Of a DNA stretch of 64,000 bases, positions 1 through 40,500 are shown piece by piece. The notes under the pieces are model-generated. The model was not told the DNA's origin and ran no database searches. It was given only the letters and a program-made list of their open reading frames with translations. Within the stretch, counting starts at the first letter, position 1. Each line of letters opens with the position of its first letter. The stretch lies in assembly GCA_010405405.1 (NCBI GenBank), contig MU004245.1, positions 375,256 through 439,255 of the forward strand, read 5' to 3'. The stretch comes from Microthyrium microscopicum. Taxonomy: Eukaryota. Position numbers and translations under genes: made by a program.

Positions 1-2139
1 ATCTGAAAGGATTGATGGGGCCTTGGATGTATGGTGAAACAGACCGAAAGCGAAGACGACTCAATCATACCCAATTGAAGAGGCATCGTTCGTCAGCAAG
101 CAGACCAGACAATGATTTGCCAGGTACCGAGAATGTGGACGGTGCTGATAGCAGTGGATGGCACGGTGCCTTTCAGAAGATTGTAGAGATAGCAAAGACC
201 GACTTTCCTCTTGTTGCGGATGCTATAGATCAATGGAATGGCCCAGAGGACCTCGATTTGGGTGGCTACGTCGATTCCATCTCTTCAGATGACCAGGAAC
301 TTGCACAGAGCTACATACAAACTGCATTTGCCAGCATATATGCGTCAGAACTGGGAAGCAAACAGGCTGCTGCCATTGCTTGGAGAATTCTGGGCCGAAT
401 AGGTGCCCTAATGGACATTCACGACGAACTTCCAGACTTGGAAGACCAGGCAGAACAGCTATCTGGTCTCACGGATCCGAAGTTAGAGATCAAGGAATTA
501 CCAAATGCTATACTAGATCCCGAATCACTCTTGCGAAAGGACCATCCCCTGACCGCAGTATCTAAGAACAACCTACTCAGTGCACAGTACTTCATACTGT
601 CTACATTTCTCCTCATGCACTACGGACAATCTTTATCAGTGATTGGAACTGTGAAATGCAAGTTCCATTTGGATAAGGAGGAACAATCAATCATGTTTCA
701 GAAGCTCCTCCATCACCTTGCGACTACCTCAAATCGATCCGACTCAGAATGGATGGAGACCAGAAGGAGGCTGCTCTGGTTATGGGGATGGGGATCAGAG
801 ATCACAGACTCAGAGACTGGAAATGGAATATTTGGCAAAGCTAGTCGCAAAACCATCGAGAAAGACATCCTAGAGGCACTGGTGCAATCGGGAAGCTACT
901 CGACGGTCACCAACTTATACATCAAAGGCAGCGAAAAGTTCCTACTACCAGAAGAAGCTGAGCAAGTCATAGCCTCCACTGCTCTTCATTACTACGACAA
1001 CGCCAGCAACGGCAACCGGCACCGCGGCACCATGAAGAAAGCATCCGACATCATCGCCGCCTTTGCCAAATACTACCCCAAATCCACCACATTCCCACGC
1101 TTGCAGGCCCTCCTCGCTGCCACCCACGCCATGTCTTCCTACTCTCTCACACTCCAACACGGCGTTCCCTTCCAGCCCGTCAACATCCGCGTCTCCTCAG
1201 ACCCTCTCTCCCTTATTGAGAAAATCCTCTCCCAAAATCCAGGCTCCTACGCCAAAGCCACCGACCTCGTATCCATCGGCACCAATCTCATCGCCGCAGG
1301 CCTCACTGCCAGCGCAGATGATCCACCAATCTCCAAAGCGAGCCTCGAAACCCGGCAATCTGCCGCCCAGCGTCGCGTCATCGGCATGGCTATCGAAGCC
1401 GCGCTAGCCGAAGACGACTTTGAAACAGCATACAGCTACGTAGTCAACCGTCTCGATACTTCCTCCGCTACCATGCATGCGCCAACCACGAGCTCAGACG
1501 ACGATGACATTGCATGGCGCGCTGCATTAGCTGCTGGGAAACACAAGTCCAACTCATCTGCAGCACCGAATACGCGCCGTCTCGAGCAGCGCATGGATCT
1601 GCTTTCCCAAGCTCTCCTCCTCGCACCACCATCCGCCCTTCCTGAAATCTTGTCTGCCTGGCGTCGTTGCGAAGAAGAGATGAGCGCTGTTCTTGCTGCG
1701 GAAGCTGCCACGGAAGCGGAGTTGGACGAAGGACTTGTGCCGGGCGCGTACATAGAAAGTGCAGCGCCCGTACAGGCCCGGCGGGAAGTCGGAAGAGGCG
1801 CAAACGAGGAGGCGCCAATGGGACTATTTGACGTTGCACGTGGAGCAGCGGGCGCGTTCGCAAAGAGCGCGTTTCCATTGCGCGGTGGGCAGGGAACACA
1901 GCCGGTGCAAGTGGTGGATACGGTGGGAAGTGATGGCGAGATGGGCAGTGATGATGGAATGGGACGTGTTAGACGACGAGATATGGTTGCTAGTGCGGTG
2001 AGTGGTGGAGCGAGTGCTGTCACGGGTGGTATCGCCAGCGGGTTGGGTTGGGTGCTTGGTAAGTCGAATACTGAATGTTCCTGGTCACAACTAACATGAT
2101 ATAGGAGCAACGCCTGTGCAGAATCCGCCCAGACAGTAG
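1..2139 (+). CDS. SEC39: Sec39-domain protein (Dsl1 tethering complex), 5' part outside the window
   Basis: ORF 12-2099 has the fungal Sec39 motifs YDNASNGNR.RG.MKKA, ATHAMSSYSLTLQHGVPFQPVNIR, AL.EDDFETAYSYV and EEAPMGLFDVARGA. Predicted intron 2059-2104 (GTAAGT..CTAAC..TAG); last exon ends GATPVQNPPRQ* at 2139. Confidence 0.85.
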
Positions 2140-2346
2140 TGTTGAGAGTTGAATGAAGCACATGAGCAATATCTAGCAATCAGAACCTTTTTTTTTTACT
2201 AAAACCCGGAATCACTAAGTCCTATAAAATTACATGAATTGAAAACAGTCAGTCAGTACTCAATATTTTGGTCGCATGGGCAAGTGCATGGATCCATTCG
2301 CCTGTTCGTCAGTAACCTTTCCCTTACTTCTATCCTCGGTTTCATT

Positions 2347-4404
2347 CTATGCACCGGGTGGTGGAGGTGGTGGTACGTCGCCGCCAGGGGGCTTGATGTT
2401 ATTAGTTGAGGTCATGACACGGACTTTGTAGAGGAAACTTACCGGTGGTGGAGGTGCATCAGCAGGTGGTGGTGGAGGTGCACCCGCTGCATAACCCTGA
2501 GGCATGCCACCAGGTGCAGCAGCCGCAGCAGCGGCGTACTGAGCATACTGAGCAGCATAAGCGGCATAGTCATAGTTTCCATATGCACTTGCCGCAGCGG
2601 CTGGTTGCTGCCATGAAGCAGCACCGCCAGCTGGTGCAGCTTGTTGATTTCCATATCCGCCATAACCACCAGCACCAGCACCACCGCCATAGCTATCGTT
2701 GTTGTTGCCACGATTACCCGCAGCCCAAGGAGCAGCGCCGGAACCGCTGTCACGATCCTCACGAGGACGAGACCATGGGGCAGCTGCACCAGTTGGGCCA
2801 CGCTGCCATGGAGGAAGACTCGAATCACCTCCCGCGCCGGCAGAGCCACCATTGTCGTAGCCACCAGGTCCAGCTTCGAGGCGGGCCACTGGAGCGCCAC
2901 CGCCTCCAAGCTCTTGCATGAGAGACTCGTATTCGCGGTCGACAGCATCACCAATCTTGCCAGCAACAGGCCGAGGAGCACCAGGCGCGCCACGCTCTTC
3001 ATTACGCCAATTGGCACCACGTTGACGATCTGGACAATCTCGGGCCATATGCCCAGCGTTTCCACATACTCGACAAATGATACCTGCAGTGAAGTTACGT
3101 TGCTCAGGACAATCATACTTGCGATGTCCAATTTGACCACCTGTTATCATTAGCTTGTTGTATTTATATCCAAAGCCTGCAACTTACAGTTTTGACACGC
3201 TTGGTTCTCGTCGTCACGGAGGGTACCGTTCAGAGTGGCTAATTCGCGAAGCTGGTTACGCTTAAGCTCATTTTGTCCCTCTGGAATGGATGCCGCCTGA
3301 GTTTTGTTAGTACATGCGCGAGGATGAGCCAGATGTGACTTACTGTCTCGATGATCTTATTGATCAGCTTCTTGGCCTTGTTGACTTTTTCTTCGGTATC
3401 GGCCATGATCAAACAATGAAGGTCTTCTTCCTGGTTGCTAGTGTGAGCAGCGTCAGAACGGCCTTTGCCTTCCTTGACAGAGCCTTTGCCTCGAATGGCG
3501 ATTTTGGCGCCAGATTCTCCTTCCATCTTCTTCAAAGTATTACCACGAGGTCCAATAAGTAATCCAACTGTTAGTAGCAAAAAAAGCCAAAGATTAGTAG
3601 TGTTCATGAAATAAGAGCATTGACGGTTAGTGATAGGAATAGACTCTGGATCGCAAATAGACGAGTCCAGAGGGGGAGATAGGATAAGAATATGCGCTCA
3701 AGGGTTAGAGACTGAGGGTTAGCAATCATACTGAAGTTAATTTCCGGATAGTCATTGACCGGCACGTAGACTTTCTCTTGAGTCTTGGTGGGACGTCTAT
3801 AGTCAGACGGTGGGTGATAGTTAGGGATTGTCTTCATGGCTTTTTCGATGAGCTTATGACGCTCATCTTCCAGGCGTTTACGATAACGGGATTCACGAGT
3901 ATTGACACGGCGACCCTGGTTGTCGTACTGTGGAGGCGGCGAAGGAGAACTAGAAATTGTGAGCTAGATTGTTGTTGAAGGAGGGCAGAAGGACTTACCG
4001 ATCACCGTCAGCTGGGACAACATCGTTGATCCGCAGCTTCTGGCTAATCTCCTCAATACGCAGATGCAGAGTATAGGCCTCAAGCTGTTCGTTGGTCATG
4101 TTTGCCATGATGGCTGTGGGTAGACCCATCAACCCAGCAGCCTTGTTCTCCTGAGCATCACCCCATCTGTTTCGCTTTTTGCGCTTCTTCGTGCCGTCGG
4201 GATTCAGTTCTAGTTCACAATTAGCATCATTCAGGAGTATGCACAAGTCTAAAACTTACCTGCGATGGGACTACGTCCTCGCTTCTGGCTTGTCTCTTGG
4301 TAGACTGGTGCTGCGGGTTCAGGACCATCATCGTCGCCAAACCGTCGGCGACTACCGAGCGGAATGTTATTCGAGCCAGTCACGCCTTGATTACGCCAGG
4401 CCAT
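2347..4404 (-). CDS. MSL5: Branchpoint-bridging protein (BBP/SF1): KH-QUA2 domain, two CCHC zinc knuckles, Pro-rich tail
   Basis: Starts [17 protein letters not shown]. Contains [10 protein letters not shown] (ULM), [28 protein letters not shown], and knuckles [14 protein letters not shown] and [14 protein letters not shown]. Predicted introns 4210-4259, 3950-3998, 3568-3731, 3297-3343, 3141-3187 and 2392-2442. Confidence 0.95.
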
Positions 4405-4944
4405 GTTCGCGGTGTTTGAAGGAAAAAGAAGTATTAAAGGTGGAGGAGGTTTGTGGAAGATTAAGGAATTTATTTGTTCGAGTCGCGAGGTAAAGTAATG
4501 TTGCGCAGCTCAGTGAAAGTGGTGGCGCTAGGGTTACCGTCCCAGGGTTAATAGGCACCTTTTGGACTTCCTGCCTATTTAGGTAATGCGGGTGAGCCAT
4601 GTCATAGATTGTCTATTTTTCCATGTACAACCAGGTCGAAATGAACTTCTTGTCACTTATCAGCGTAACAGTAGGTCGTCTCAAAGCAGCAGAATGAAAT
4701 TTAGCCTTCCAATTTAGTCTTATCAAAAAGTAACCAACGCGAAAACTATGCTGTCTAAGTTATGCGATATGCAAGGTATTTCCCACCAGGCCGTAGCCAA
4801 CGCCACAAAATGCATTTAAATGCTACGACGCATTCTTCTCGAACATCATCAAAATTTGCGCCAGTGCGATGCGGAAATCAATGCAACCAATAGTAACATG
4901 GGTATGAGCGGCAATGATAAAGCAGCCGTTCGTATCTAGAAGAC

Positions 4945-7900
4945 TCATTTATATTTCTGTAAGTGATGTTAGCATTTTGTTCAACATCATGAAAGTGCGA
5001 TATCTTACGTCTTCGAGTCGCCTTCGACTCTGGCCATCCAAAGAGTTACCTACGCCTAGAAGCGCGGTACCTGTTGCGCGTAAAGTTCCGATTGCTGGTT
5101 TCAGTACGACTGCCGGCGCACTACGCCGTATCGCACCAACCAAATCTCCTGCACTTTCGCTCTCACGAATGTCCGTACCGACAGCGATTATGGCATCGCG
5201 CGCAGACATCAGATCCCGTTCCAGATGTCGAGCTGCATTTCGTAGACCCGAGGCCACAGTAAGCGGTTGATTGGCGTATGAGGATACAGCCCGCGACGCT
5301 GGACGGCGACCGGGAGAAGAGGAGAGGTAGCCATCATCGTCTTCGTGCGGATTTTCAGCAGGAGAAAGCATTGTTTCAGCACCTTGAAGAATGTTGCCGG
5401 TTCCAATTGCAACACGAGCGCCTAGTCGAGCCAATTCGCTAGTGGTTGTTTTGGCGAAAGCCAGGGCACCCTTTCTAATGCTGCGGATCAGGCGGCCGTC
5501 CTTCTGATATTCAGTCATGGGGATGAACACGAGGTTTCTAACCCCTGCGCCCACATTGACAATAGGACGAAATGGAGCAAGGCCTTGCAACACTGTGGGA
5601 AGCTGGTTGCGAGTAACATCGTTAACCCAGAGATCGTTGAGAACAGTATGCATGTTGTCAAAGCCAGAGATTCCATAGACAAGAAGCCGCTTGAGCATGA
5701 TATCAGCCCCATCCAGAATGACAAAGTTCATGAACTCTTTGGTGCGGCCAGATCGTAGACCTGCATAATCTACCTTCTTTGGCTTGTAATCGAGCTTGAT
5801 TGGAACCGCTCGGATTTCGATACGCTGAATAAAGGGTGGATTGGCAGGTCGACCAGTTGGTTCTCGGGAACTATCTTTGAATTCGAAGAATCGAGTGATG
5901 AAGTCCAGAGTGTCTTGATCAACATGGAGTCGAAGCGGAAGCACCGTTGCTCGTATGACCATTTCCGTTGCAGAAAGTTCTACCTTGGGTTTGACATTTT
6001 GTATCTCAATGTGAAACATTGGCTTTCCAGATGGTCTTGGGCCAGCATCGTGCATGTAGGTAATGAACTTTCTCCAAGTGGACGTAGGTACGTGATCAAA
6101 TATCTCCAGATTTCCAACCTTGACGTTGATGGAGCTTTGTGTCTCCACAACACTAGGAGGAAGAACCAATACGTCGACGGCAAGTTCGCGCACTTCGATA
6201 CTGACTTTGTGACGCTTACTTCGATCAAGCTTTAGACTTCGACTCCGCTTTCGTCTCAGATCAGGTCGAGTTGTAGAGTGAGAGGTTACAGTGGTAGTGG
6301 TACCCGTTTCCGAACCCAGGTCATCCATCTCTCGGTTGATGCGACGTCGAAGATCATGTTCATCTTTGTTGTTTGGAACAGCAATCCAGATGGATTGAAA
6401 AAGAAAGTCGCCAATCTCTGATTCTTCGTCGTCCACGTCAACCGAATGTCTTTGTCGCTCTGATCGTCGCTGTGCCGCACGAGCCTGGACATCTTCGACA
6501 GCTCGAGTAATTGTCTGTCTAGTTTTGTCCCAATCATACCCATCAAACATATTGAACATCAAAGTCTTGACTCGGAGCTCCAGCTTGAAAGGACAATCCC
6601 GTGTTGTGAGTCCAGGAATCATTCCATACCGATTTGTGGCGGATGTCCAGCCATGAATAGACTGGGGGGAGTATACTTGGTCTGCGTGGCCATCAATTCG
6701 CTCTAGAGGCGCGCCAGAGGGAGAATGGCGAAAGGTTAGAGAAGCCCTTGAGGAAAATGGTGGTCCAGATGGAATGGGTCGTTCTTGCGCCCGTTCTGAT
6801 TGTGCCACTGAATGTGTGTCAAACGATTCCATGGACTCTTCCATATCACTATCCATTGTGTCTCTATCACCAGCATCGTAAATGCTTCCAATCATTTCGT
6901 AACCATCGGACTCATCAGCAAGCAGGTCCTCATCATCATTCAAGTCGGTTATGTTCGTGGGGCTAGAAGGCTCTGCCTGCTCATAGGCCATTCCAGAGAA
7001 AGCAGAGATCAGATCTTCCGCGGGCATGGGATCAGTATAGTAGGCCATATCCTTTGAAGGGGGCGAGGGCGGGTTAAGACCATCCAGGATTTGGATCAGG
7101 GTCTGCGTTGAGTCTGCGCAAGTTTCCAGGACAAATAGCTCACTATTTATGGAGACGGTGACTGTCGACTTCTCGTTGGGTCCAGAGTCAGCTTGCACAA
7201 GAATGCTTGTAGCGTTCAAAGCACCAAGAGACCGATAACCTTGTCGTGAAAGATCAGTAATGGTCGGGCTTGTTATTTGTATAGACCTTGACCGAGGTGT
7301 TGGCTCAATCTCGAGGTCTAGTAACGCAGAGTCATCGATGGCATGCAGTGAAGCTCTTCGAATTTCCAATAATCCCTTCATAGGTGATTCGGATGATGCA
7401 TTGGCACTGAACTGTGCACTGCTGAGTAAAAGAATTCCTCGAGCAGGCTCTCCAGTTGGATTCAGACCAATAGCGCAATCCCGAATCAAGACTTTGACAT
7501 ACATCGGCTTTGGACGCGGTGATGTTGAATCCGACAAGTTTGATGTTTGTCTAGAAGGTGCCATAGGGGGAAATTGTGCTGTAGCTACAGACATCATACT
7601 AGCAGCCAAATCCTGGGAGCTCGCATCATCTGGCGCATCCATAAAGGCCATGAGAGTGGAAACTTTGTACTCGAGGCCAACATTGAAAAGTTTGACTTTG
7701 ATGGTAGGCTCCATTTCATCACCAATGATTTTGCCCATTAACATGGGAAGATGATCATCGAATGGCAATGGGACTACTTCCCCGACCATGACATCTTCAC
7801 CCTTGGATACCTGAATTGAACCAAGCTGGAAAGCAAGAAGAGCGGGTACTCCAACATGTGCCAGTCGAGCATTAGCAAGTTCAGCCGTTAATTTGCCCAC

Positions 7901-10900
7901 TCGGGAGTTGACACGAACGTTCGACTTGAGCTTGAGAATCGATACGAGTGTCAGAATTCCCGGTCGGTCATCCTCTGGAAGATACTTGGTGACGTTCGAG
8001 AGCTTAGATAATTCATCGCCAAGAGCCTGGAGTTTAGGGAGCGCCTCAAGGTCAGAAAGTTGAAAATCGATATCTTCCAGCGTAGCCCGAATGACAGAAC
8101 CTTTCTTGCGTTGACGAACTAGAGTATCCACTAAGATGTCATCTTCATCCTCATAAGGATCTCTGCTTGGTACTAGCAGCGACAATAGAGCAGTGATATC
8201 TTCTTCTTCTGGGGCGAACAAGAAATCGACCTTGGTGTTGAGAACAGTAATGGCCACTGGAGGTCGACGAGTTGATGGTGGATCCATAATTGGTCCTCGC
8301 ACTTTGATACGAGCGAGCGCAACGCTGATACCATTCGGTTGTAGATCCGCTTGTATAGAACTACTATGCAATGAGATACCACAGACTTTACCTTTAATAT
8401 CGACGTTCATACCGTCAAGCATCACAATAGCCTTGATTGGGAGAGTGTTTTGTGGTGTAGCTGTCGTGTCTGATGCCTCCAGTCGTTTGACCTGTGCCTT
8501 GGGCTTCGGACTCGGGGCACCCGCGAGCATGGTACTGTTCGAGGCCATTGAGCTGCTCAGATCAAGGACTCCACTTAGACCTCCATAGCACTCCAGTCTC
8601 TCGTCAATCTTTTGCATGTTCACAGATATTTGTAGTGGAGCTGTAAAAATGTGGACCTCCTGGCCTTTGCTTCGACTACGAATGTATTTTAACTCAATGT
8701 CAAAGGCTGGCGGCTCAGGTAAAACTCGAGAAGAAGTAGTATTTGGTGGTATACCAAACTTGACAATGTCCTGTCCGGGAATTCCAAGAGTGAAACGACC
8801 AATGTTTGCCCCAGCGACCACAAAGAAGCCGGTTTTTCGTATCTGAACCTCAGCGTCTAGTATAGTAAGCAGGACCAAGGCGTCTGATGTTGCATCCAGA
8901 TTGTGAGGCTCCGGTATTGACGTAAGATGCTCACGGACTCCAAGTTTAACTTGTTTAAACTGAACTGATAAGGAGAGAGAGGATTCTGAAGCTTTCTCAG
9001 CTGAGGATTGGGCGTGAAAGTCTCGGGATGTATCCGGGGCAGGTTCTGGAGGAGTAAGTACTCGCTGGGCCAGTACAAGAAGTAAACGAACAGCCGAAAG
9101 ATCCATTTGACCTTGTAGACAGCCTACTATCACATTAATGTCGTTGTCTGGTTGAATTGGTGAGTTCGAAGCTGAAGGCGCTTCATCGGACGGCGACTTT
9201 AAGGGGTCCTTCACTATCTGTGGCTTCTTTTCGCTTCGTCTATAATTTTGTCCATCATGGAAAGCGCCAGGCATTGCCGCAAAATAACTATCTTCCGAAT
9301 AGGCTTCCGAATCAGCCTCCGAAGCCGCATCGTCGGAAGTCTCGCTTTCGGCGTTTTCATCCACATTTCCAGCCCATGGAATCATTATCATAATTTCATC
9401 TAAGCTGAATAATGTTTTTGTTTCGAGGGATGTTGCTGGAGCGGGGAACTGCTTTGCGACAGGAGTATGCGCACCCGAGCCTAACTCAGTCGAGTCTGTT
9501 AGCTGTTTCTCCGATGCCTCGTCATCTGGTACAGGAGCATTTGCCGGTGAACGTGGTGTCGGAGTCTGGCATGTGGAATCGTCATCCTGTGAGGGGATAA
9601 CTGGGGGCTCAGATCGAGAGTGGCCGCTGAATTCTGTGTTGTCAACTGAGAGACTCGGTCTGCCAGCCTGAAATGTCTCGTCGCCGTGTGAGCCAGGTCT
9701 TGATAGGCTACTCATAGCACTTTCAAACATCATGCTTTCGGCTTCGTCGTGAGTGAAGAATTTCGATTCAGACATTTCATCCGGCTCACTCTGGCTTGAA
9801 TCGCTGCCCGAGCTGGGGGGCTCATCATCCTCAGCAAACGGAGCGGATCCCGGTATTTGTTGCGAGTCTCCCAAAAAACCCAACCCGAGACTCGATTGAG
9901 TTTGTGTCATCGGGTTGTATTCCACTTCTCGTTGATCTATACGTTCACTGTGTACTGAGGCCGACATGTGAGATGCATTTAGTCCAGAGACGGCCATGCG
10001 CAAAGGGAATTGCTCCGATTGTTTGAGGAACGACGATTGGCCTGAGCTCTGATGAGATTTCTTTCGACTACGTTTGGATTCTGCTCGAGGCCCACCGGGT
10101 TCAGAGATCATCATGGATTGAGCCATGTCACCCTCATCGTCAGATGCGTCAGCGAATCTATCGCTCTCATCCACAGGCATATGTTGAACAGCGTGATTGT
10201 GGTCCGAAAAACTCATAAGATCCTCAGGAACGTCGTCATCGGGCTCTACTGTGTAATGTTGCAATCCCAGCATTTGCGACTCTGAGACTGAACCCTGCAT
10301 CATTGAAGCCATCATAGATGGTGCCATAGGAAATTCATCAGAGTCAGAGGACTCGGGATGGGATCGAGTTGAGTATCTTGACATTTCGGGGCTTGCCTGG
10401 CTTTGTGGAGGACTTGAAATCGCGGACGAGTGGCTATTAACTCGCGACAAGGTTGCGAAAAATGCTTGGTTCGTTGTCAAGTCCGCCCGGATGCCACGAA
10501 ATACGGCGCGTCGCTTGTTCTTCTGCTTGGAGACCAAGCTCTGGGCCCGCTCAGGGTCGTGCCGCCGTGAAGTTATTCCAAGGACATCAACTTCATGGAC
10601 ATGAAAGCCGATTGAAGCTTCCAGGTCTTCTTGTATCTGCAAATGTGCAGGAATTTCATGCGCGGGAACATCGAACTCGATTACAAACGCGACTTTTTGA
10701 ATGGTGACCTGCAAGCGATCCACTATACCCTTCAAATAACCAGCTATCCAGTTAGGCAAGCTTATTTCTACGCCGGTTCCTTCGCCGGGCTCATCACCGT
10801 ATTGCAGATCGGAGTCCTCGAGGTTAGTGGCTGGCTGTTCTTGTATTGCTTCCTCTAGTTTGCGTAGCTCTGCCTCCGGCAATTCTGCCAGAACATTCTT

Positions 10901-11357
10901 TGCGACTTCCTTGGTCGATGGCAGATGTTGGCCATCTTCGTTTGTAGCTTCGGGCTCGTGTCCTTCTGTGGGAGATCGACTGGACCGGATACAGATCTCG
11001 ACTCCATTTACTTCAATCTGTATGCCACTCGCGAAGATATTGGCTGGTATCGTGACTCGAAGGGTTTTTATTCGACCTTTGGTAGGTATGAGGGAGTCTG
11101 GGAGGCCGGCGAGCTTGGAGATTTTCTACATGGAGTCAGCAGTTGTCCACTATCAGATGTTCCAAGCTTACATGAACATGTAAGCCGACATCTTGAAGCT
11201 CTATAGAGCTTTGTATGCCCCATTCAATCTTGAGTTGGTCTAACTTCAAGCTGTCGGTATCCAAAATCTCTAGTTGCGACAAGGCCAGAAGAAGAACTCG
11301 CTCTTGGAGTGAAGAAGGGAGAAGTTTGGAGGCAAATGAAGGGATCCATGACGCCAT
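4945..11357 (-). CDS. ATG2: Autophagy-related protein 2 (lipid-transfer protein)
   Basis: About 2100 aa. Chorein-N-like start, then FDGYDW, DHVPTSTWRKF, LPLRLHVDQDTLDFITRFFEFKD and KLDYKPKKVDYAGLRSG. Predicted introns 11126-11171 and 4957-5008; ends RRRLEDKYK*. Confidence 0.95.
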
Positions 11358-27318: not shown

Positions 27319-29936
27319 GATTTAGCCTTGACTAGTTCCACCGTTACATAGTAGATACTGGCACATGTTATGCTAATACAGCTACCTCTACAACAGCTAT
27401 TTAATATATAAGATTTTGGCCCCAACCGTTAATGTCTATGTCTAACTCCAAGATTCCCAAAATGTCTAAGTTATTACGTAAGCAAGACTTAGTAGAAGAT
27501 ATATCCTAATTTAAGATACTACTAAATATAGGTCTTAAAAAAAGCCTAAAAGATAATAACGCCCCTAAATCTAAAAAGATAATATCCTTAATACCCTAAA
27601 AGATAATAATAAATACTAAATATGCTTAAGGTATAATAAGTCTTAAGTACTACTAGATTTAAGGTTATAGCCTTTCTTTTAATAAAAAAGTAAATATATA
27701 AACGCCTTCTAGCTATTTTATTAGTTTTTTCTCTTATCTTCTCTGTTATCCTTTCTTCTCCTTAATCCTCTTATAGTTCTTAGCCTCTTATTATCTCTTT
27801 ATATATATAATAATCTATTAAGTTATTATAGAATTGTTATAAGAAGTTTAAAGTAGAAAAGGCTCTCTAAAATTTAGCAATTTAGCTTTATATTTAAATT
27901 CCTCTATTATTCTATAAGGCTCTAGCCTATAAAGATAGTTCTTTTTAAGTAGTTCTAATTTTTAATAGCCTTAAGTACTCTAAAAAGATTATTAGGTAAG
28001 TAAGAATATTAACTCTCTAAGAACGTACTTAATTACCTAAGTTTTTTATTAAAGATAAAGCTTTTGCTTCTTTTCTTTCCTTTCTATAATAATTTCCCTT
28101 TCTTTAATCTTAAGTATAACTCTTACTTTAATCTTTTATTTTTTTATATACCTTATATCTTAAATAGCGTCTATTTTAATAATAAAGACTATAATAAGTT
28201 ATACCTTTATAAAATCTACTAGTAGTTTATTATAACTTACTACTTTACTTATATTAATTTATATTTAAAGTTATAGTATGTTAAAACCTAAGTAAATATA
28301 GAGAATATAATAAACTATCTAATTAATATAAATATTATAATATTAATAAAAAGTATTATCTACTACGCTAATCTTAAAAAAATAGTCTTTTAATTCTATA
28401 TAACCTAACTTTAGTCTAAAAAGTATTTTAATAACTCTAATATCTATTCTAAAGTAGAAATCTAATTTATAATAGTTAACTTATTTAATAAGAGTATATA
28501 GTTTATAACTATATTTACCCTTAGTCTACTCCTTCTACTAAGTATTATTTAAAACTCTTTTAATAAATATTTTAAGATAAGTAGTACTCTTTAATTTAAC
28601 TAATAAATTAAGGTAATTAATAAACCCTTCCTTAATACCTTACTTAATAAGCAAGTTAATATAATTATTACCTTTAATATTCTTATACCTAAGTATTTAA
28701 TAAATATAAATTAGTCTAGTAATTTACTTATAGGCCTTATAGAATATATATATAAACTATTAGGCTATCTTTACGTTAAGATTATATAAAAAAAAGTATA
28801 CTCTCTAATTATTAATCTAAATATAAGTAAAAGTAAAATCTTATAAACCTACGTCTACTTAATCTCTTAAGGCTTAGGCTACTATAAAGGCCTTAATATT
28901 ATATACTAAAGTATGCTATAGTAAGCTAAAATACTACTACTTTTTAGTTAGTATATTAATCTAATAATTTCCTTATTTTAAAGTATAATCCTTAAGTATA
29001 GGATTTTAGTAAAAAAAGGTAGCCCTAACCTTACCCTTAATATTTAAGCTATTAATAAAATAGTAAATATAATCTAAAGTATCTTAAAAAGTCTATAAAT
29101 AGAACCTCTTAGCCTTAAGGTCGCTATAAATAAGATTAAAAATAGGCATACTTTACTAAGGCTTATAAATAAATAAAGAGAGCTTTAATAAACCCTAAAA
29201 ATTAATACCTAAATATAAGGCTTAAAGCTAGAAAACGAGAAGGCGAAATAATAACTAATATAAGGCTTACTATAAAGCTTACCTTATTAATAGCTTACGT
29301 ACTTTAACTAAAAACTTTTTAAGGGCGTGTTTCTTTTAAATAATATAAAATACTACTAATTAAAAGATTTCTAAGATCCTTTATTAAACTAGGAGGAGGC
29401 CTAATTTAACGTTATATATTACTCTTATAATATTAATTTAGCCTCTACTAATAACTAATACTAAGTCTCTTTAAATCGTTTGTAGGGTAGCTACTACTTC
29501 CTTCTAATATTCTTAAATAAAATATTTATATAGAAATATTAATAATATTATAAATTTATAAATTTACCTTAAAGCTATTAAATTAGCTCTATACTTTTTT
29601 AATTTTATAAAGTAACGTAAAATTATAAGGGCCGCGTTAGCCTTTTCTTTCCTTATTACTATATATTTAGCCTAATTTAGATAATTATCTAAATAAACCT
29701 TTAAAATCTTATAAAAGTCTATAAGAAGAATATTAACTTTATTATTATACTTTAAAAAAAAAGACTTTACCTTAAAAATAATAGCGTAAGTCTATAGTTA
29801 TACTAAATAAAAGAGTAAAAACTTCTCTAATATAAACTATAATCTATAAAAAGTAATCTATTAGTAGTTAAAGGTAAGTTCCTTCTAAAGAAACTACTTC
29901 TAATAACTAGTTATTTTACCTACTATAGCTATAATA

Positions 29937-30163
29937 TGTGACGAGCTGCGGAACTCAGAGCGAGCAGATAATTAGATTGTATTCTAGAATCTACGAACGG
30001 GAGAGAGAGAGAAGAAGATCTAGAAGAGCTGCAGATCTACGAGGGATGTAAGTCCGCTTAGCAGATCCTCAGACGCGCTAACCTCCTTAGGTCTAACGCG
30101 TGATCTTGTAATAAGATCTCTCTTACAATACCGCTATAAAGTCTATAAAAAGGAATTATCACA
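29937..30163 (-). repeat. 3' LTR of the Gypsy element
   Basis: Direct repeat of 37364-37590; about 25 differences by eye, all C/T or G/A transitions. Confidence 0.95.
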
Positions 30164-33100
30164 CGACCCCCTCCTTCAGCATAGCTCTCCGGGCTATAAA
30201 TTACTAATTATAACTGCTTTCCTAATCTATTCTATTCCAATCCGGTCCAGTCTAGTCTAGTCTAGTTCAGTCTAATCCAATCTAACAAACTTTTGGTAAT
30301 AAATAATATTTCGATCCTTCTATAGTACAACACTAACCTTACTAGTCGTTTAGAGCATCTCGACCTCCGGTCTGTTAAGGTAACTGTTAAGAAGCATTAA
30401 CGAACCCTAAGATATTTTTAGAATACTCCGGTTCTCAAGTTCTAGTAGTCTAGTAGTTAGTGATCCTATTAGTATAGGGGAATTAGTAGTATAATTATTT
30501 ACTCCTCTTAATCAATAAGAACGCTGTTAGAGTCATAATTAACACCGTCGCTAGTAGGCTCTAGTATTAGTGGTATCTAGGTGGGATATAGGCTTAGCTT
30601 GTTGGGGTGCCAAGCGTGAAACTTAGTAATAAGCTCTGGCGCGTTCTTAGCAGCTGTTTAATCATACCATTTAGCTTTATCGTAACTAGTATACTTGATC
30701 TCGTATTATAGCTTTTTATATTAACCGGCGAAGCGACTGTTAACGATAGCGTTAACAAACTATTCGTTGTTGTTTATGATTTCTCTAATGACTACTAGTA
30801 GTGGATTAGTATGCCTAAGTAACTTAGCGTCGTCTATAATATAATAAAGGACCTAAGCGTGGAAGATATTATATATCTTTATAAAAGAGAAGAGATTGAG
30901 TTTATAGGTGACGGCATTAATTTTCTTAATTATATGGAAGGGACCTATATTCTTATCATCTAGAGTCTTTAAGGGATGTGAAGTAAGGTAATTTCGTGTA
31001 TCTAAGCGAACCTAGTTATCTAATAATAGGTCTAGAGCCGCGTGGTGATAGCGGTTGGCGTATTCTGCTTACTAAGCTTAGGCTTAGATTAATTGCTTTA
31101 TTAAGTAATTGTATATCTCGGCGTGACCTTTCTATATCGTATTTATATTAATAGTATCCTTATTAGCAGCTATAAAGGCATTTGTAGGTTTTGGGAGGCG
31201 ATGTAAGGACTCGAGGCCTAAATAAAAGTTAAATCCGTTTTAAGCTTTAAAGAGTATAACTCCTATGGTGGCGTTTATGGCAGAATTGACTATAAATTTA
31301 GCAAAGGGCAGAAGAGCTACTTAGTTATCTTAATCTTAGTTAATAAACGCGCGTAAGAACTACTTGAGTGTGGTGACTGAGATTTCTGTTATGCCGTTAA
31401 TTTTAGGGTGAAATGCTGTATTAAGACGAAGTATTATATTTACGCGTTTATATAAGCGCTTTTAAAACGCGGAGATAAATTAGCTACTGTGATTTGAAAG
31501 AATTATTAATAGTTAGCTAACGAGCTTCCACACGTGGTTAATGAAGGCTAGTACTATTAAGTCTATAGATAGGTCTAGTAATAGGATGAAACGTTAGGTC
31601 TATGTATATTAGTCAACGACTACTATAACGTATTAATAAATTACACCTTAGTATAAATAGTGAGGTAGTAAGATGGCAAAGTTGATAAAGATATCTAATT
31701 ATATACGCTTAAGGAGAGGGAATTGACGTAAGAAGCCTTACTTCTTTTAGTGAACGGGTTTAGTAAACACGTATTTGTAGCCTTTAACAAAGCTCTTAAC
31801 GTCCTACAATATCTTAGGCTATTAGTAATCTTCTTATAGGTAGTAGTAAGTTGTTACTGTTCCACTATAGCCTATAGCTTTATAGCTATACGCGCTTTAT
31901 ATAGCGCGATGCTGAAGCTTATCTTAAGGGATAAAGATCCGATTATAGTAGAGGATTATCTTATCAGCAGCTACTATGTAGTCTTTAAGCTCGATTTGTT
32001 CTCGTTTTGGAGTGCTAAAGGGTAAGAAGAGCTAGTAGTCGGTCTTGGTATAATAAATAGCGATCATTGTTTTATTGTGCTCCGTTACGTTTATAATATC
32101 CTATAGGAATTAGTCGCTATTAAAATTTAGGAATAGGTTATCTCCTAAGGGATTAAGTAGCTCACCCTTAGGCGTCTCGTTGTTACTAAGAGACTCTCTT
32201 ATAAGATTAAGTAGCTTACCTATAGGATTAGAAATATCTAATTCATCTTAAGTAATGGTAGCTAAGTATAGTATTAAGAGGCGGGCGAATTTAATAAGCA
32301 ATATAGCTAGCTTTATTGCGTGTTCCGTATTAAATTAGTATAGGAATAATAAAAGTCAGACTTATTAAGAGACGTAAGGGTTATCGTCACTTTGTAGAAT
32401 ATTTTATAACTGACGGGTGAGGGTATTTACCTTTCCATTAGCCGTACTTAGGCGGTACTTTATTTTGAAGTGAAACTGGGAGAGGAACTTAGCTTATTTA
32501 GCTTATTGTTAAGAGAGACGTTTTGTTATTATAAACGTCTAAAGGTTATAGTAATTAAAGAATACTTGAATAGGGTCGATGGAGCTAAATAGCTTTGGTT
32601 TCTACTCTTTAAATGCGCGAACGATAGCTAGAAGCTCTTTATCGTAAATGTCATAATTATATTCTATTAAAGTCATCTTTTTCGAGAGATACGCGACTAG
32701 ATAAAGTTTCTTATCGTTACCTTTTTAAGAGAGGACCGCGGCATAAACCCAATCCGAGGCGTCTGTCTCTAGCTATATTTCTTTTGTATAATTAAAGTGA
32801 CGTAATATCTTAGCGGATGTGAAGTCTTGCTTTAGCTTCTCGAACGCACGTTCCTTTGGCTCATTAAGGTTTTAAGGGAAGATTACCATAGCGTCCTTCT
32901 TTATAAGTGCTATTAGCGGTGCTGTAGTCTTTAAATATTTAAGAATAAATCAATAGTAGAAGTTGGCAAAGCTAAGGAAAGCTTAAATGTCTTTTATTAA
33001 AGAGGGATGTTGCTAATTAACTACGCTTTAAACCTTTTTTAAGTCTATCTCGATGCCTTTAGTAGTAATAATCAGGCTGAGGTATTTAATCCGTTAAGTA

Positions 33101-36100
33101 TTAAATTCACACTTCTGGATATCTAAGTACAATTCTACTTTACCTATTACTTTTAGAACTAAGTGGGTATAAGCGGTGTAGCCAGCTTTAGTATTACTAA
33201 AGACTAACAGATCGTCTATATAGCCTATAACGAAGTTATTTAGGTAATCGATTAGAATATAATTAAGATAAGCTTAGAAGGTCCTTAGGGCTTTGGTGAG
33301 GCTAAAGGGCATAACTTTAAATTCGTATAACTTATAACGAGTTAGGAATGCGGTTTTATATTCGTCGTTAGGTTTAATGCGGATATGTGTGAAGGCGGCG
33401 ATAATGTCGAATTTAGAGAAGTATTTTGCATAATAGATATAAGTAAGTGTTTTTAATAGCTACAAAGGAACATTACGATTCTTTTATATAATCTTATTGA
33501 GTCTATAATAATTAATATAAACTTAAATTCCTTCTTCTAGCTTATATACATATAATATTAATACGGCGTAATGTGATTTACTAGCTTAAACTTAATTTTG
33601 ACTAAGTATTTAATTAACGTATTATTTAATAACAAGGGATTCTTAATAACCTAAGCTATTATAGTGGCGTTTAGGGATCGTAGCGTCCAAAATAATATTA
33701 ATAGAGTAATCTTATTTACCACAGTATGGTGCGAGTTTATTACCCAATTTTGGGTCGAAGACGTCTATATAATGGTGATATTTCTTTAGTAGGTGTTTAA
33801 GAATCTCGTCTCGTGAGAGAGGAGGCTTATTATACTTCTCTCGTTATTTTTTAAAATCCTTAGGTAAGATTTTGCTTAAGTTGATAGCAACGTCTTCCTT
33901 TAGTATAGGATCTAGGTCTAGAGGTTTCTTTTCCTTTTTATCTTTAAAGTCGTCAGGCCAGATTTCGTTAAATTGCCAGCCTTATTCTAGTAACTTAACG
34001 AAGGCAGTAGTACTAACCATAGTGACGTTTTTAAAGCGAGGGTCTGTCAGATTAACTGAGCGGCCTTTACAATCCATTAAGATTAGGCGGCCTATTAATA
34101 AGCAGTATATAAGGTAGTGGTCTAAGTTGAAGTAGATTTGCTTCTTGCCTCCTTTAAAAGTAACCTCGTGGAGGTCGATCTAAGGGTTGCTAAGGATAAG
34201 ATTATAGCTAGCGACGTTTATAATAAAGTAGCAGATTTATTCGATATGCCTTCCTAAACGGACGTTAACTATAGCGGCTTTATCGACTTTCGTGATAGCC
34301 TTACCGTTAGCTAATTGTATGATTTAGGGGGCGGAGAGATCAATAGTAGGGATCCTGTGTTGTTTAATAAAGTTAAGATGAATGATTCCCATCGCTCCAC
34401 TGTTAATGTTTATAAGGATGTTAATTTTCGAGTAGTAGCCTTATTTTAGAAAGAATACGGTACTAGAGGTGGTCCATTAGTCACTTACTATAGGTATGGC
34501 GACTACTTCTTAAGGACGGAAATCGTATGCCATAGAGGCGAGGGATATCTTAATGACAGCTAGTTTAGTGTCGTCGAATATGATAGGCTTTAAAAATGAC
34601 GCTCGTTAAAAATCGCCTTCTAGGCGCTAAATAGTCTTATCGACCTTATATTGAATTTATTCTTTAAAGAGAACTGGCTCAGGATTAGGTTCCTCCTTCT
34701 TCCGTCGTTGATTATGCGCTTCTTGCTTATTTAGCTCCTTTGCGCGTTTCTGTAGAGGAGCTTTCAGTTTTCCACATCATTATCGTAATCGTACTTATTA
34801 TAATTATCCTCTATAGTTGGGGACTGAGGAGATTAAATAGTAATTCAATCGTAGATAGCGGTAAACTTTATAATAATAGCGGTGACCTTCAGTTAGATTT
34901 TGGTATCTAAAAGGGCGTCTTAATCTTTATATAGTGTTGAGTTATGCCAATAGCTATGGCCCTTTTCTTTATACTTTATGTAACGGTTGTTAGCCTTTAA
35001 GGCATTATAGATGTTTAAAGAGCGGTTAAACTTTAATTTCCATCCGCTACCCTCAGCTACTAGACGATTGTTATTATCGTAGCTTTGTGGATTGGTAAAA
35101 AAAACGTATTTAATATAACGAGTAATAGTATATAAGCTCTTAAGGAAGTTGGTAAATGTTTTCGATTTTATGAAGAGCACTCTTTTTACGAACTTTAGGA
35201 GTAGAAGGGAACGTATTTTGATAATCTTATCTTAATTACTAAGCTTGGCTTCTCGTAAGTTCTTTAAGAAGCGGGCTAAGAATTGTTTAAGCTTCTTAGT
35301 AGGCTTCATCATAGCTTCCTAACTTTTAAGCTAGGTTTTAGCGGTGATATAACCATCTTTAATACCATACTCACGGTTTAAATTAAACTATATCTCTATT
35401 ACGGATAAATATAGGTTAGTTAACTTATGGTCACTTCGTTTGTCGATAGTACTAAACGCTTAATCCTCTGTCGCTCCTTAGACGACTTAAATCTTAAAGG
35501 TTTTTGTAAGATAGACTTATGCGTTGTTATTAAGGTAATTTAATACTTTGCCTTTCTAAGCGCGATACTTCTACTTATCCTTTCTTAAGAAGAGTGAAGG
35601 CTTATCGCCCTATACTTTAAAAAGAGAGGCGCTACCAACCAAGTTAAGGTTAGAGAAGGAAGTAGTTCAACGCAAGTTTAGTACCCTTAAAGGTATATTT
35701 AGGTTAGGTTAATCTATGTCTCGAGCTAAGGAGGTCTAGCGAAATAGATCATTATCTACTAACTTATCGCGATCAAGATAGGGATTAGTCGCCTTAATAG
35801 CTAAGGGTTTCTTTTAGAGAGCGTTAATCTAAACTTAAAGGATGGTAGCTTTGTCTACCTTCTCTTATAGAGCCTTATAGTATTTACCAATCTTGTCAAC
35901 GTGGGTAGCAAGTGCTTCCTTAAGCAGATCGTTATTATATTATAGTTCTTGTGCCTTCTAGCGGGTGGTTACTACTTCCTTAAAGATAATAGTATTGTCT
36001 TAAATTTACGCTTTAAGGTAAGTAATCTACTTTACGCGTTTATCGTTAGTTTTAGCTAAGTCTTATATCTCTTCTTAAGCTTCTAAAGCTTCTTTCTAGA

Positions 36101-37363
36101 GAGTATAGATTAAATTTATATTGCGAGCGTTTATATTTTATTTAATTTTAAAGAGGTAGGCTATGGTTTGAGAGGCCGATAATGAGGCGTAGAGCTATAT
36201 AATTAAGTTGTCTAGTGTAATTTCTCCTTTTAATAGACGTTCCAAGTCCGCACTCGATTTGATTAAGTAGTAAGAGTGATAGCGGAGGTCTAATTACTTT
36301 TCTTTACGACGGAGGTATACTCTTATATCTTTTAGCTCGTCGCCTTCTTTACTAGGCATCTTTTGTACTTAAGTAGCTTAGAAGATCAGAAGGTTCTTAT
36401 TGACGGTTAGAGTGACTAGTCGATTAAGGTCTGTTACTATAGGGTAGTAAAATATTAATACGGGTAATACTTTAAGGCCTTCAACTTACTAGCGTAGTTC
36501 CATTAGCTATTCGTGTATTCTAAAAGAAAGTCTAGTGTTATTATTAGGTTGGAAAGGAGCTGGTAACCGGTTATCTCTTATGTTCATTTAGTTTAATAAA
36601 GTTATTCGACTAGCATTTTAAGGGGCGTCTTCTGACGCTTTAGTCTCTTTACTTTTACGGCCTCGTTCTAATAGATAATTATCTTCTAACTCGTCTTTAT
36701 CTTCTAATAACGCTCTTAAGTTTAGTTTTAGCGGTTTTAATAGTCTTAAGACGCTCTTTACCGAATCTATTACTTTCTAGGTAGTATCCGGTTATACTAG
36801 ATCCTAAGTGTTGGGTCCGCTTTAATACTTGGCACGTATAGCGGAGGGGCGACGCGATAGAGATAGGTAACGCGAGCGTATGGGAGATAAAAATAAGTAC
36901 CGATTATTAGGCTAAGTACGAGTAATTAAAGACGGCGAGCGGGCTATATAACCATTAACTTAAGTCTATTAGTTAAGAGCCTTATTAGCTATAGTTATAA
37001 ATAATGAAGAAGGGTACTAGGAGGGAACGCTTATTTATTTGGTGTGTTTTAATAGTAAATGTGTTAAGTATAATTACGGATATTTAGTAGTAGTATAGAA
37101 GATAAACTTTAGTGTTCTGTAGAACTAAGGATGAGGGGTAATTAACGCTTAGACCGTTAATAGGTCAAAGAGTGTTAGGGAATCCTAACGCTTTAATTGG
37201 ACAAGGGGTTAGTGGAGCTAATAGATTTGGTGAATCTATGAAGGATCTTTAATAGGATTTAAGATCACGCGTGCGGAATATTGATCTATACAGGCGCTTC
37301 TTTGGAAGTAAATTCTAGGGTGCGCGGTGTAAGCGCGCGGGTGGTTGAAAGGTTCGTAGATTA

Positions 37364-37590
37364 TGTGACGAGCTGCGGAACTTAGAGCGAGTAGATAATC
37401 AGATTGTATTTTAGAATCTACAAACGGGAGAGAGAGAGAAGAAGATTTAGAAGAGCTGTAGATCTGTGAGGGATGTAAGTCCGCTCGGCAGATCCTTGGG
37501 CGCGCTAACCCCCTTGGGTCTAGCGCGTGATCTTGTAACAAGATCTCTCTTACAACACCGCTGTGAAGCCTGTGAAGAGGAATTATCACA
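37364..37590 (-). repeat. 5' LTR of the Gypsy element
   Basis: Direct repeat of 29937-30163, followed on the minus strand by the putative primer-binding site AATCTACGAAC. Confidence 0.95.
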
Positions 37591-40500
37591 TAATATTATT
37601 AATCTATATAATTTTACTATTAATACTAATTTCTTCTCTCTCTGCTCTATATTCTTATTTAATAACTAAATTGGCGTTAAATAAGATATATAATAATAAT
37701 AATAAAGGTAAGCCTTATAAAATACTAATACTTATATTTTATATTTCTATATAATAATTTAGGGTCTTAAGTTAAGCCTTATACTTAATTAAGAACTTAA
37801 AGATTTAACTTACCTAAATACTTCTTAGCTTACGCCTATGTAGATTATAAATTATATAGATATATAAGATGTAGTTAAAGGCTTTACTAATATTTAAAAA
37901 TAAGATTATCGTAGTAAATCCTTAATCCTAAGCTAGGTAGATATTCTTAATTAAATAATATAATATTTTATCTATACTCTAAGCCTTTTATCCCCTAAAA
38001 TAACTACGTAGCAAAATATCGTAAGTATTAAAAATATAATATAGCCTTGTAGCTATATATAATTCTATAAGCTTCCTAATTATATTTAGTAAGGTAATTA
38101 AGTAATAAGATTTTACTTATTTTAAATTATTCTTAATATTTTTTACTAGCTTATAAAGCGCGATAATAGTCACTTCTTTAAAGTACTAAGGATAATATTC
38201 TAAGTATATAAAAGCGTTAAATAAGCCTATATACGCTTATAAAAAAGAAACTCTAACTATATTAATATATCTATCTTTGTAGAAGAATACCTTTTTAAGA
38301 GCTTCTATAGCTACTCTATCTAACTTATATACTTTACTAGACTTTATATTCTTTACTGCTTAATATACTTTCTACTCTATAAAATTATAAAATTTAATAG
38401 GCTTAGAGTATCTTAATTCTAAGTAATTAATAATATCCTCTAAGTCTATAGTAAGTAGTAGTAAAAAAAATTTTACTAAAAGAACTCTACTTTTATTCTC
38501 TAGTATAATAGTAAAGCTATTACTATTTCTAAGTTAAATAATCTTAAAGGGATCTTTCCCTTTAACGTACTTTTTTAATAAACTTAATAGTTTCTAAGCA
38601 GAGACTTAATCCTTTAATAGCTTAGTAAATACTAGTTCTTATAATAGGTTCCTCTATTATTTTATAGTTTATTAACTCTAGTTCTTTAACTAGATTTAGC
38701 GCGCTTTCTAAGCTTTTTTTTAAAGATTCTTATAATAGCAGTTTTACTTTACTTTTTATAGTATTTATCTCTAATTATTAAGTACTATAATTATCTTAAG
38801 GAATATTTAATTATATTTTCCTCTAAAAAAGTATATCCTTAAAGGTAGAGTAGCTTTCTTAGTTACTTCTTAAATTACGTAAACTATATATAAGGTATAA
38901 TTATCTAAAGCTTTGCGTAAGTTTAGATTAACTAGCTTATTAAGATAGTCCTTAATATAACTCTAAAAGGCTTCCTTATTATACTTATTCTATTTTACTT
39001 ATAATATTTAATATTTACTTCTAATACTAATTTTAAGGATTATATATAATAGCTAATAGTTACTTACTACTTATAAAGCGTAATTATAAGAAAGGAAGTA
39101 TTAAAATCCCTAAGCCTAAAGTTATACTAATACTAGCAAAAAGTCTATTATAAAACTCCTCTAATTCTAGCGAGGTAAAATCTAAATCTTTATACTAACT
39201 AAGCTAAAATTAACTAATCTAAGAGAGAATATAAGATTAAGAACTAAGATATAGTATTAGCCTTAGGTGCCTATACTACTCTATAAGTTATAATAAATAT
39301 TAAAGTCTTTAACTATGTACGTAAGTCTCTATAGTACGTTAAGAAAGGCTTAGTAGACTACTAGTAGAATGTCTACTTCTTTTTAGCTAGCGTCTAGCGT
39401 ATCTTAATATATATTAGCAAAGTATACTAGATATTACTAAGTATTAATCTTTATTAAATACTAGTCTTTCTTATTATAAAGAATTTTCTAGTTCTTAATA
39501 TAGAGGTTATGGCTAATATACGTAGCTACTCTTAGTATAGGTATATAATTAGACTATACTAAGTAGTATCCCTTAAATGCCATAGTATAAGGAGCTACTC
39601 TATATTTATTAACCCATGGTTCCTAGATAGTAATTATATTAAACTTAAGTAGCTTGTTAGTTACTATAAAGTTCTTAAGCTATTGCTAGTTTAGGTAGGT
39701 CTTATTAGCATTATATTAAAGGATATTAAGACTAGAACTCTAGACGACTATAGGAGAGTTTACTAGAAGAGGTATATTTATCTAAGAAAGAACTTCATTA
39801 TACTAAGATATAATAATGCTTAGCGTAGGTAATAAAGACTACTACGTTGCTAAAGGTAACGCTACTTATAAGGATAGAGTCTAGAATAATGAGTCTATAC
39901 TTAGTTATTTAGGTGCTTAGTTAATTAGTAGACTTTACTTACCTTTTTACTAAGCTCTACTAAGGCTTTATCTTCTTTACTTGTTATATTCTTATTACTA
40001 TCTAAGGAGGGTTTATCTAGGTCCTAATTACTAAGTTCTATAGGTAGTGCTATTAACTTAATTAGACTAGCGTAAAAGACTATAACCTTATAGTCCTTCT
40101 TAGCCTTCTCGTTTTTAATACTCTTATAGATAACTTTAGCTTCGTAAATAGTAAGGGACTTAGCTTAAGCCTATTCTTCTTTCTTTGCTAACCTAGCTTC
40201 TTTCTCTTCTACTAGACGATCTACCTTTTCTTAGTTAAGAGCTTCTTAATCTATTATCTTCTACGTCTTTATACGTTTATAACGTTTATTATTCTTACTT
40301 AAGTTAATACCTTTAGGTTCTTTACGTTTTAAAGTAGTAGACTAGATTTCATTAGAGTATAGTAAGGTTAGTATATATAGTACTTATTCTAGCTAGGTTG
40401 GTTAGATCTTTCTTAGGCGTCCTAGTCTATATTTCTAAGAATTACTAGCATTATTAGATTTATCTAAGGTAGATGCCCCTTTGCTTTTCTTTTTATAATT

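Follow-up and report, generated by a model that had tools for sequence, protein, structure and literature searches.

A conserved, weakly spliced intron carrying repeated branch-site motifs in fungal branchpoint-binding protein genes: a candidate for negative autoregulation

Autoregulation of splicing factors by unproductive splicing is already well known. For SR proteins, PTB, hnRNPs, RBM39 and Rbfox2, the cited passages on regulated intron retention and on alternative splicing coupled to nonsense-mediated decay (AS-NMD) describe conserved copies of a protein's own binding motif through which its pre-mRNA is directed into an isoform that stops prematurely (PMC9262138, PMC3967051, PMC10477243, PMC6547761). 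For yeast RPL30, RPS14B, RPS9 and YRA1, the source consulted describes proteins that bind the intron or 5' splice-site region of their own transcripts and block splicing, with inefficient splicing as a required part of the design (PMC11585973). Tandem ACUAAC motifs near the branch site of RAI14 intron 10, where QKI and SF1 meet, are described as repressive when bound by a STAR-family protein (PMC13004596), CUGBP2 as autoregulating by interference with branch-site use in its own pre-mRNA (PMC2715136) and mammalian detained introns as single introns retained far above their neighbors in otherwise spliced transcripts (PMC4281565). Here we describe an intron with likenesses to all of these. It is intron 3 of the gene for branchpoint-binding protein (BBP; also SF1 or Msl5) in a stretch of 64,000 nucleotides (nt) from Microthyrium microscopicum (assembly GCA_010405405.1, contig MU004245.1, positions 375,256 to 439,255 of the forward strand), which we refer to as the window and whose own numbering is used throughout.

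The BBP gene lies on the minus strand, with its ATG at 4404 and its stop at 2347, and the gene model gives a product of 549 amino acids and six GT..AG introns. Intron 3 (3568..3731, minus strand, phase 1) separates INF from (I)GLLIGPRG within the KH domain and is 164 nt long, from GTATGA to CAG; the remaining five introns measure 50, 49, 47, 47 and 51 nt. An earlier note, made from the letters of the window, had drawn attention to this difference in length, had located five branch-like motifs in the intron and had placed the stop that follows from retention ahead of the GPRG loop. The gene model and the spliced junctions described below, a motif scan and an open reading frame at 3604..3963 reproduce these three observations at the same coordinates.

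All elements of the intron are on the minus strand and are described here from donor to acceptor. The donor at 3726..3731 is the non-consensus GTATGA, with A at position +6. Two motifs that we call decoys 1 and 2 lie close behind it: TGCTAAC at 3718..3724, with its branch A 13 nt from the donor, and CTCTAAC at 3704..3710, with its branch A 27 nt from the donor. In most relatives decoy 2 occupies +16..+22, and the window carries six extra bases there. A predicted hairpin, CUCUGGA.CUCG...CGAUCCAGAG, at 3644..3672 is kept in the centroid structure of the fold and lies upstream of a mid-intron CACTAAC (3626..3632; branch A 105 nt from the donor), which aligns with a conserved 'tcaCTAACc' block. 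The first in-frame stop met upon retention is at 3604..3606, and retention truncates the reading frame ahead of the RNA-binding KH loop. TACTAAT at 3593..3599, whose branch A follows the donor by 138 nt and precedes the end of the intron by 26 nt, is probably the branch site in use. A pyrimidine-rich stretch, CTTTGGCTTTTTTTGC (3577..3592), leads from there to a TACTAAC at 3570-3576 that is fused to the acceptor AG at 3568-3569 (TACTAACAG, 3568..3576; branch A 161 nt from the donor).

The number of CTAAY motifs in intron 3 is above chance. Five copies are matched by 0.02% of 5000 dinucleotide shuffles, for which the mean is 0.77, and 0.35 per 164 nt would be expected from the window-wide rate. 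That rate is itself inflated because of an AT-rich block at about 28000-42600. Other clusters of at least four CTAAY within the 64 kb are confined to this block (~28-42 kb; GC 0.22-0.36), where many such clusters are found on both strands in what looks like degraded, repeat-mutated sequence.

Relatives of the gene were found by scanning metagenome contigs with the exon-4 peptide, and the best 80 of 356 were examined; they were thus chosen by the KH exon and not by the intron. Both flanking exons are present in 75 loci, which group into 38 clusters at 90% exon identity. Of the 75, 69 have a long intron (137-245 nt) at the phase-1 position of intron 3, three have a short one (52, 86 and 97 nt, with a GTAAGY donor and 0-1 motif) and three have none, at least two of which (L014 and L052) look RNA-derived. 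The flanking exons of the window are at most 86.5% identical to those of any locus, and third-codon identity has a median of 0.50 over all pairs of loci and of 0.51 between the window and the others. The orthologous position of the intron in loci so diverged rules out a recent introner-like insertion. Introns 2, 4 and 5 are missing from many loci that keep the long intron. A DNA contig from a related fungus, organism C, has ~202 nt at intron 3 (187 letters replacing 149, with both ends alignable) and is without intron 2, where 59 bases are replaced by 10 (window 3945-4005). Counting the window, the set holds 61 distinct long introns; 116 neighboring introns of the same genes, 100 of them with a recognizable branch motif, were used as controls.

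The long introns carry an excess of the motif. Pooled over all 61, the sense strand has 281 copies of CTAAC and the antisense strand 0, where composition predicts 16.5, and every one-mismatch variant of the pentamer is found at 0.35-2.1 times its expectation. What the introns preserve is the exact pentamer CTAAC. A tolerance of CTGAC at the decoy positions, looked for in these introns as a signature of BBP, was not seen (8 observed, 11.2 expected). The mean number of CTAAY per long intron is 4.9, against 0.85 in shuffles; one intron has two copies, one has three, 18 have four, 26 have five, 14 have six and one has seven. Four to six motifs are present in 35 of the 38 cluster representatives. 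Control introns are short and carry 0-2 copies each, and their branch motif is an exact CTAAC in 52 of 116.

The copies are also fixed in place. CTAAC falls inside the first 15 nt in 57 of the 61 long introns, and at least two CTAAY fall inside the first 32 nt in 53. A CTAAY with its branch A 18-32 nt before the acceptor is present in 58. The intron ends in CTAA(N)AG in 41, and 48 have CTAA within their last 8 nt; many relatives carry ACTAA-AG at the acceptor in place of a full TACTAAC. Over positions 7-24 the top-base frequency is 0.78 in intron 3 (consensus GTATGATTGCTAACCCTCTAAC), compared with 0.39-0.42 in introns 2, 4 and 5 of the same loci. Just upstream of the pentamer, two bases vary among the 5'-side copies: at their -1 position T is found in 43%, G in 21%, A in 20% and C in 16%, whereas the main site has A in 87%; the +1 base after the decoys is C in 66-75%. 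The earlier note had asked whether the extra motifs are conserved in orthologs, and both their position and their exact sequence prove to be kept across the 38 lineage clusters. From this comparison, the layout of intron 3 is evidently held by purifying selection across many diverged filamentous fungi, and the putatively regulated region carries the predicted binding motif of the factor that it encodes, conserved beyond neutral expectation. Two loci of a more distant lineage, L020 and L027 (donor GTACTTAC), have a long intron with the mid, main and acceptor copies and none beside the donor, so the 5' decoys may be younger than the 3' part of the architecture.

The splice sites of the long introns are weak, and this weakness is itself conserved. 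T at donor position +6 is found in 2 of 61 long introns compared with 91 of 116 controls, and an AAG acceptor in 38 of 61 compared with 4 of 116. Donor positions +4 to +10 are covered by a perfect TACTAAC in five loci from two lineage clusters (L005 and L007-L010). Among the control introns the distance of the branch A to the intron end is 8-23 nt, and its distance to the donor is at least 25 nt. Ordinary branch use is consequently impossible for copies placed at +8 or on the acceptor, in agreement with the earlier note, which had considered the first and last motifs misplaced for that role. The presumed working site is also unusually far from the AG, at 26 nt in the window and 20-32 nt in most relatives, with longer distances in three.

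Transcript-derived contigs indicate that intron 3 is incompletely spliced. None of the listed sequencing runs is recorded as RNA. However, run X5 (organism B) shows no differences from the window (100% identical), and its contigs are spliced at the predicted junctions of all six introns, from which an RNA origin follows. The spliced joint of intron 3 (3567|3732) has a depth of 876.7, and a contig of 224 nt that runs unspliced through the intron (3538-3761) has a depth of 875.8. The two depths sum to the depth of the flanking exons (1662-1770), as they would for two arms of one assembly bubble. The other five introns occur spliced only, and the exon share by itself accounts for the bin depths over them. 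By this measure about half of the transcripts would keep intron 3, a rough figure drawn from contig depths in this one run. The incomplete splicing that the earlier note had anticipated is borne out, and, as in detained introns, one intron is selectively kept in otherwise spliced transcripts. The contigs show either a skip of the full 164 nt or full retention with no intermediate joint, and the internal GT sites (GTCTCT, GTCTAT and GTCAAT) are without G at +5; on both grounds a stwintron was rejected.

Several metagenome contigs appear to capture the same two states in relatives. L014 is a fully spliced copy of the genomic L033, with blocks that are 100% identical, from which exactly the 194-nt intron has been removed with use of the distal AG. 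Aligned over 1-950 to L033 185-1768, it is also missing four more segments (121, 61, 54 and 91 nt) upstream of the BBP start, so the contig includes either a spliced gene lying upstream or a long leader that is spliced. L030 is without introns 1 and 2, compared with the 99.6%-identical genomic L074, and keeps the whole 193-nt intron 3. By this comparison it is evidently an RNA-derived contig from a distant relative that keeps intron 3 alone, and an unproductive isoform with a premature stop is thus present as RNA both in X5 and in L030. The L030 contig (1068 nt) is circularly permuted with respect to L074, in the order exon 3, intron 3, exon 4, part of exon 1, exon 2, exon 3; the join that follows exon 4 is non-canonical, probably an artefact of assembly. 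In L041 and L022, intron 3 is the sole intron. The full coding frame of L041 is open once it is removed, and that of L022 is open as far as the intron-5 position, where a 1-nt frameshift occurs. These two are either transcripts that retain intron 3 or lineages that kept intron 3 alone. At the exon 5/6 junction of L022 the gap is 2 nt instead of 3, which produces the frameshift and may reflect an alternative junction or an assembly error. Retention leads to an in-frame stop in all 61 long introns; the first stop lies 54 to 189 nt from the donor, and the intron lengths fall in all three classes modulo 3.

Pfam and structure matches to the translated gene model (2347..4404, minus strand), whose six junctions are bridged by spliced X5 contigs, identify the host gene as an SF1/BBP (Msl5) orthologue. 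A helix-hairpin before the KH domain is recognized by SF1-HH (PF16275) on exon 2 (2.9e-13) and exon 3 (9.6e-25), KH-I BBP (PF22675) matches exon 4 at 4e-20, and a zf-CCHC knuckle (PF00098) on exon 6 (1.2e-9) is followed by the proline-rich C-terminus seen in the translation. The nearest solved structures are those of the yeast Msl5 KH-QUA2 region (4WAL/4WAN) and human SF1 (1K1G), and alignment to 4WAL/4WAN gives 3e-20 for KH and ~9e-9 for QUA2. Exon 4 (3344..3567, minus strand), which begins (I)GLLIGPRG, encodes the KH core with the GPRG loop and aligns to Msl5 residues 166-199 with the RNA contacts kept. The residues of Msl5 that touch UACUAAC are those named in section 7 of PMC4338336. On the KH side, 11 of the 13 within exon 4 are identical, and the other two are conservatively replaced (L169 by I, R177 by K); V165 is I here and sits in the codon split by intron 3. 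None of the 10 named QUA2 contacts differs, and among them is the Lys-Arg pair that the same section connects with the high specificity of the yeast protein. Given these domains and contact residues, the gene is a BBP/SF1 orthologue and its product should read UACUAAC-type sequence.

Two further features of the long introns complicate a picture made of motif copies only. A YAG lies 5-7 nt past the main branch A in 58 of the 61 (block 'ACTAACACTTAGCT'; loci among L004-L080, e.g. L012:2318-2498), and is missing after the main branch site in the window (CTAATCTTTGG; 3577-3599) and in L007. The YAG-to-branch spacing of the relatives is shorter than in any of the 100 control introns with a branch motif. 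In 46 of 59 cases the stretch from the near AG to the productive one does not keep the frame, and use of the near AG would there be unproductive. Three roles are conceivable for the near AG: it could be hidden, serve in early recognition or act as an alternative, unproductive acceptor. A two-AG logic operates at exon 3 of Drosophila Sxl. The second feature is the hairpin just 5' of the mid copy, which recurs in relatives with differing sequences (e.g. L006:2365-2433). RNAalifold applied to 14 sequences gives a weak energy, with compensatory change at 6 of 9 predicted pairs; the whole-intron fold of the window has z = -1.55, and the mid-regions of the long introns average z = -1.19, 12 of the 61 falling below -2 (mononucleotide shuffles). 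These predictions do no more than suggest a conserved mid-intron hairpin. A long-range pairing of decoy 1 (GCUAA) with a conserved UUAGC after the main branch site was considered and rejected, as inspection by eye found no covariation. The decoy model of the earlier note is incomplete in that it leaves out the conserved weak donor and AAG acceptor, the hairpin and the YAG of the relatives.

We propose that intron 3 is a conserved, weak intron that senses the capacity for branch-site recognition, with negative autoregulation through BBP bound to decoys at both splice sites, and we regard this proposal as moderately probable on the sequence evidence. When BBP is low, only the best-placed site, TACTAAT with its following pyrimidine tract 26 nt from the acceptor, would be occupied, and splicing would be productive. 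When BBP is high, the extra CUAAC sites would be filled as well, probably together with the U2AF65/Mud2 partner on C/U-rich flanks; the frequent C at +1 of the decoys fits such co-binding. The 5' copies are off the optimum at the two upstream bases (see the -1 frequencies above) and so would be expected to fill at higher BBP only. Occupied sites at +8 and +22 beside the donor would be expected to hinder U1 and U6, or else to lock a dead-end cross-intron bridge of BBP, Mud2 and U1, and BBP on the site fused to the AG would hide the acceptor. Cross-intron bridges from Msl5-Mud2 to the U1 small nuclear ribonucleoprotein (snRNP) are described in the cited sections of PMC4338336 and PMC8624252. The unspliced RNA would then be held in the nucleus or degraded, BBP output would drop and the level would be steadied. 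In PMC2377449, BBP and Mud2 are connected with the holding back of unspliced RNA in the nucleus, and pre-mRNA that escapes is described as a target of NMD; nuclear retention of this kind would explain a retained form that is stable and abundant.

A number of points weigh against negative autoregulation by BBP. Binding of BBP to the copies and a retention that follows BBP level are inferred, and the direction of the feedback is taken by analogy with other splicing factors. U2 small nuclear RNA (snRNA) also pairs with these motifs, and the sensed factor could be the U2 snRNP. The long intron is not universal, as 3 of 75 loci have an ordinary short intron and 3 of 75 have no intron. The 1:1 ratio of the two forms derives from contig depths of a single run whose RNA nature is deduced from spliced joints, and the abundance of the retained form argues against fast NMD. 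Finally, the near AG conserved in 58 of 61 long introns is unexplained by a simple decoy model.

The intron might instead sense the U2 snRNP or general spliceosome capacity, the CUAAC copies titrating the branch-recognition sequence of U2 snRNA or early-complex factors, so that splicing of BBP mRNA would report spliceosome availability and not BBP level. The motifs match the branch consensus paired by U2, a weak donor and acceptor would make the intron sensitive to any limiting factor, and intron-specific retention fits equally well; however, the variable two bases before the 5'-side copies should weaken U2 pairing more than the KH contacts of BBP, and the element sits in the BBP gene itself in every lineage seen, so that we consider this alternative unlikely. 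We find it quite unlikely that the extra sites act in the opposite sense, as BBP-dependent enhancers in a positive feedback or dependence in which BBP bridges to U1 via Prp40 and rescues the weak donor. The Msl5-Mud2 bridges to U1 snRNP, in the sections of PMC4338336 and PMC8624252 cited above, lend this some plausibility, and a donor conserved as weak may need help. The copies, however, begin at +8 and in five loci cover donor positions +4 to +10, where binding should clash with U1 and U6; an enhancer role is difficult to assign to the AG-fused copy, a core factor under positive feedback would not be kept at a steady level, and about half of the transcripts stay unspliced.

The purpose of retention might also lie in its product, a native N-terminal fragment of ~190 amino acids with an intron-coded tail, which would keep the U2AF65-binding N-terminal region and the helix-hairpin without KH-QUA2 and could compete with the full protein. 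Such a role may coexist with autoregulation, and it would suit the position of the intron directly before the RNA-binding loop, the in-frame stop in 61 of 61 and the abundance of the retained form, but the intron-coded tails are unconserved (first stops at 54 to 189 nt from the donor and lengths in all three classes modulo 3) and selection acts on the CTAAC copies and not on the reading frame, which makes it distinctly improbable. A different reader of the motif is very unlikely, whether another RNA-binding protein or a DNA-binding factor for telomere-like repeats. CTAACCC does resemble the C-strand, and C often follows CTAAC (among the 281 copies, TAACC occurs 163 times and TAACCC 86 times). 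Full telomere units, however, are rare (CCCTAA 13, TTAGGG 2), all copies are on the sense strand (281 to 0) and a C/U-rich flank is what the U2AF65/Mud2 partner would bind. A telomere-repeat or Tbf1-type DNA element was rejected on the same counts, 13 and 2 compared with 86. We know of no other STAR-family protein in these fungi. That the copies are remnants of duplications within a long intron and that retention reflects noise in splicing, with no function in either, is a reading that one long intron in one genome might have allowed; it becomes extremely improbable when position and exact sequence are conserved where synonymous sites are near saturation, neighboring introns are unconserved and intron 3 is kept where others are lost.

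Returning to negative autoregulation by BBP, it is conceivable, but in our judgment rather doubtful, that the retained transcript is itself a working RNA. It would be an abundant nuclear 'branch-site sponge' coated with BBP and U2AF, each molecule holding several BBP and buffering the free pool for the whole transcriptome, and at the same time a pre-made reservoir that could be spliced quickly when BBP is short. The conserved hairpin and the two-AG acceptor module of the relatives would then set the kinetics of release.

A search of Rfam over 2000-5000 gave 0 matches at E up to 1, and we find no intron-hosted small nucleolar RNA or other curated RNA family in this interval. The upstream neighbor of the BBP gene is an ATG2 orthologue at 4952-11125 on the minus strand (PF13329, 1313 bits), with an apparent small intron near its 3' end at about 4950-5010.

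BBP/SF1 makes the first call on where the branch will be, and we know of no description for fungi of the control of its level. If our proposal is correct, decoy copies of a core splice signal are the means by which filamentous fungi regulate a core component of the spliceosome. The intron would then be a compact natural design for sensing concentration and would offer a handle on the accuracy of branch-site choice, and its exact CTAAC copies would be a natural in vivo readout of BBP specificity. For genome annotators, the intron gives reason to expect an apparently mis-spliced BBP transcript. In a full-text literature search, with subscription-only papers outside its scope, no report was found of BBP/SF1 regulating its own intron through branch-site copies.

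Set beside the systems with which we began, the locus differs from each in a particular way. The AS-NMD systems concern auxiliary regulators, whereas the factor here is the core branch-site recognizer; the presumed decoys are copies of a core splice signal placed by both splice sites, the outcome is retention of a whole intron rather than inclusion of a poison exon, and a dose response is inferred here. The yeast RPL30-type proteins have other primary jobs and use special RNA structures, whereas BBP is a spliceosome component and would use ordinary branch-site sequence. S. cerevisiae MSL5 is, to our knowledge, intronless. In the RAI14 case, as the source describes it, dimeric QKI competes with SF1 on an exon of another gene; here the gene is that of the SF1 orthologue itself, and BBP is the presumed occupant. 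CUGBP2, in the account consulted, binds UG-rich flanking motifs and not the branch sequence. In comparison with mammalian detained introns, which share with intron 3 the selective retention of one intron in otherwise spliced transcripts, this is a fungal intron with a defined motif architecture, known from sequence and contig depth.

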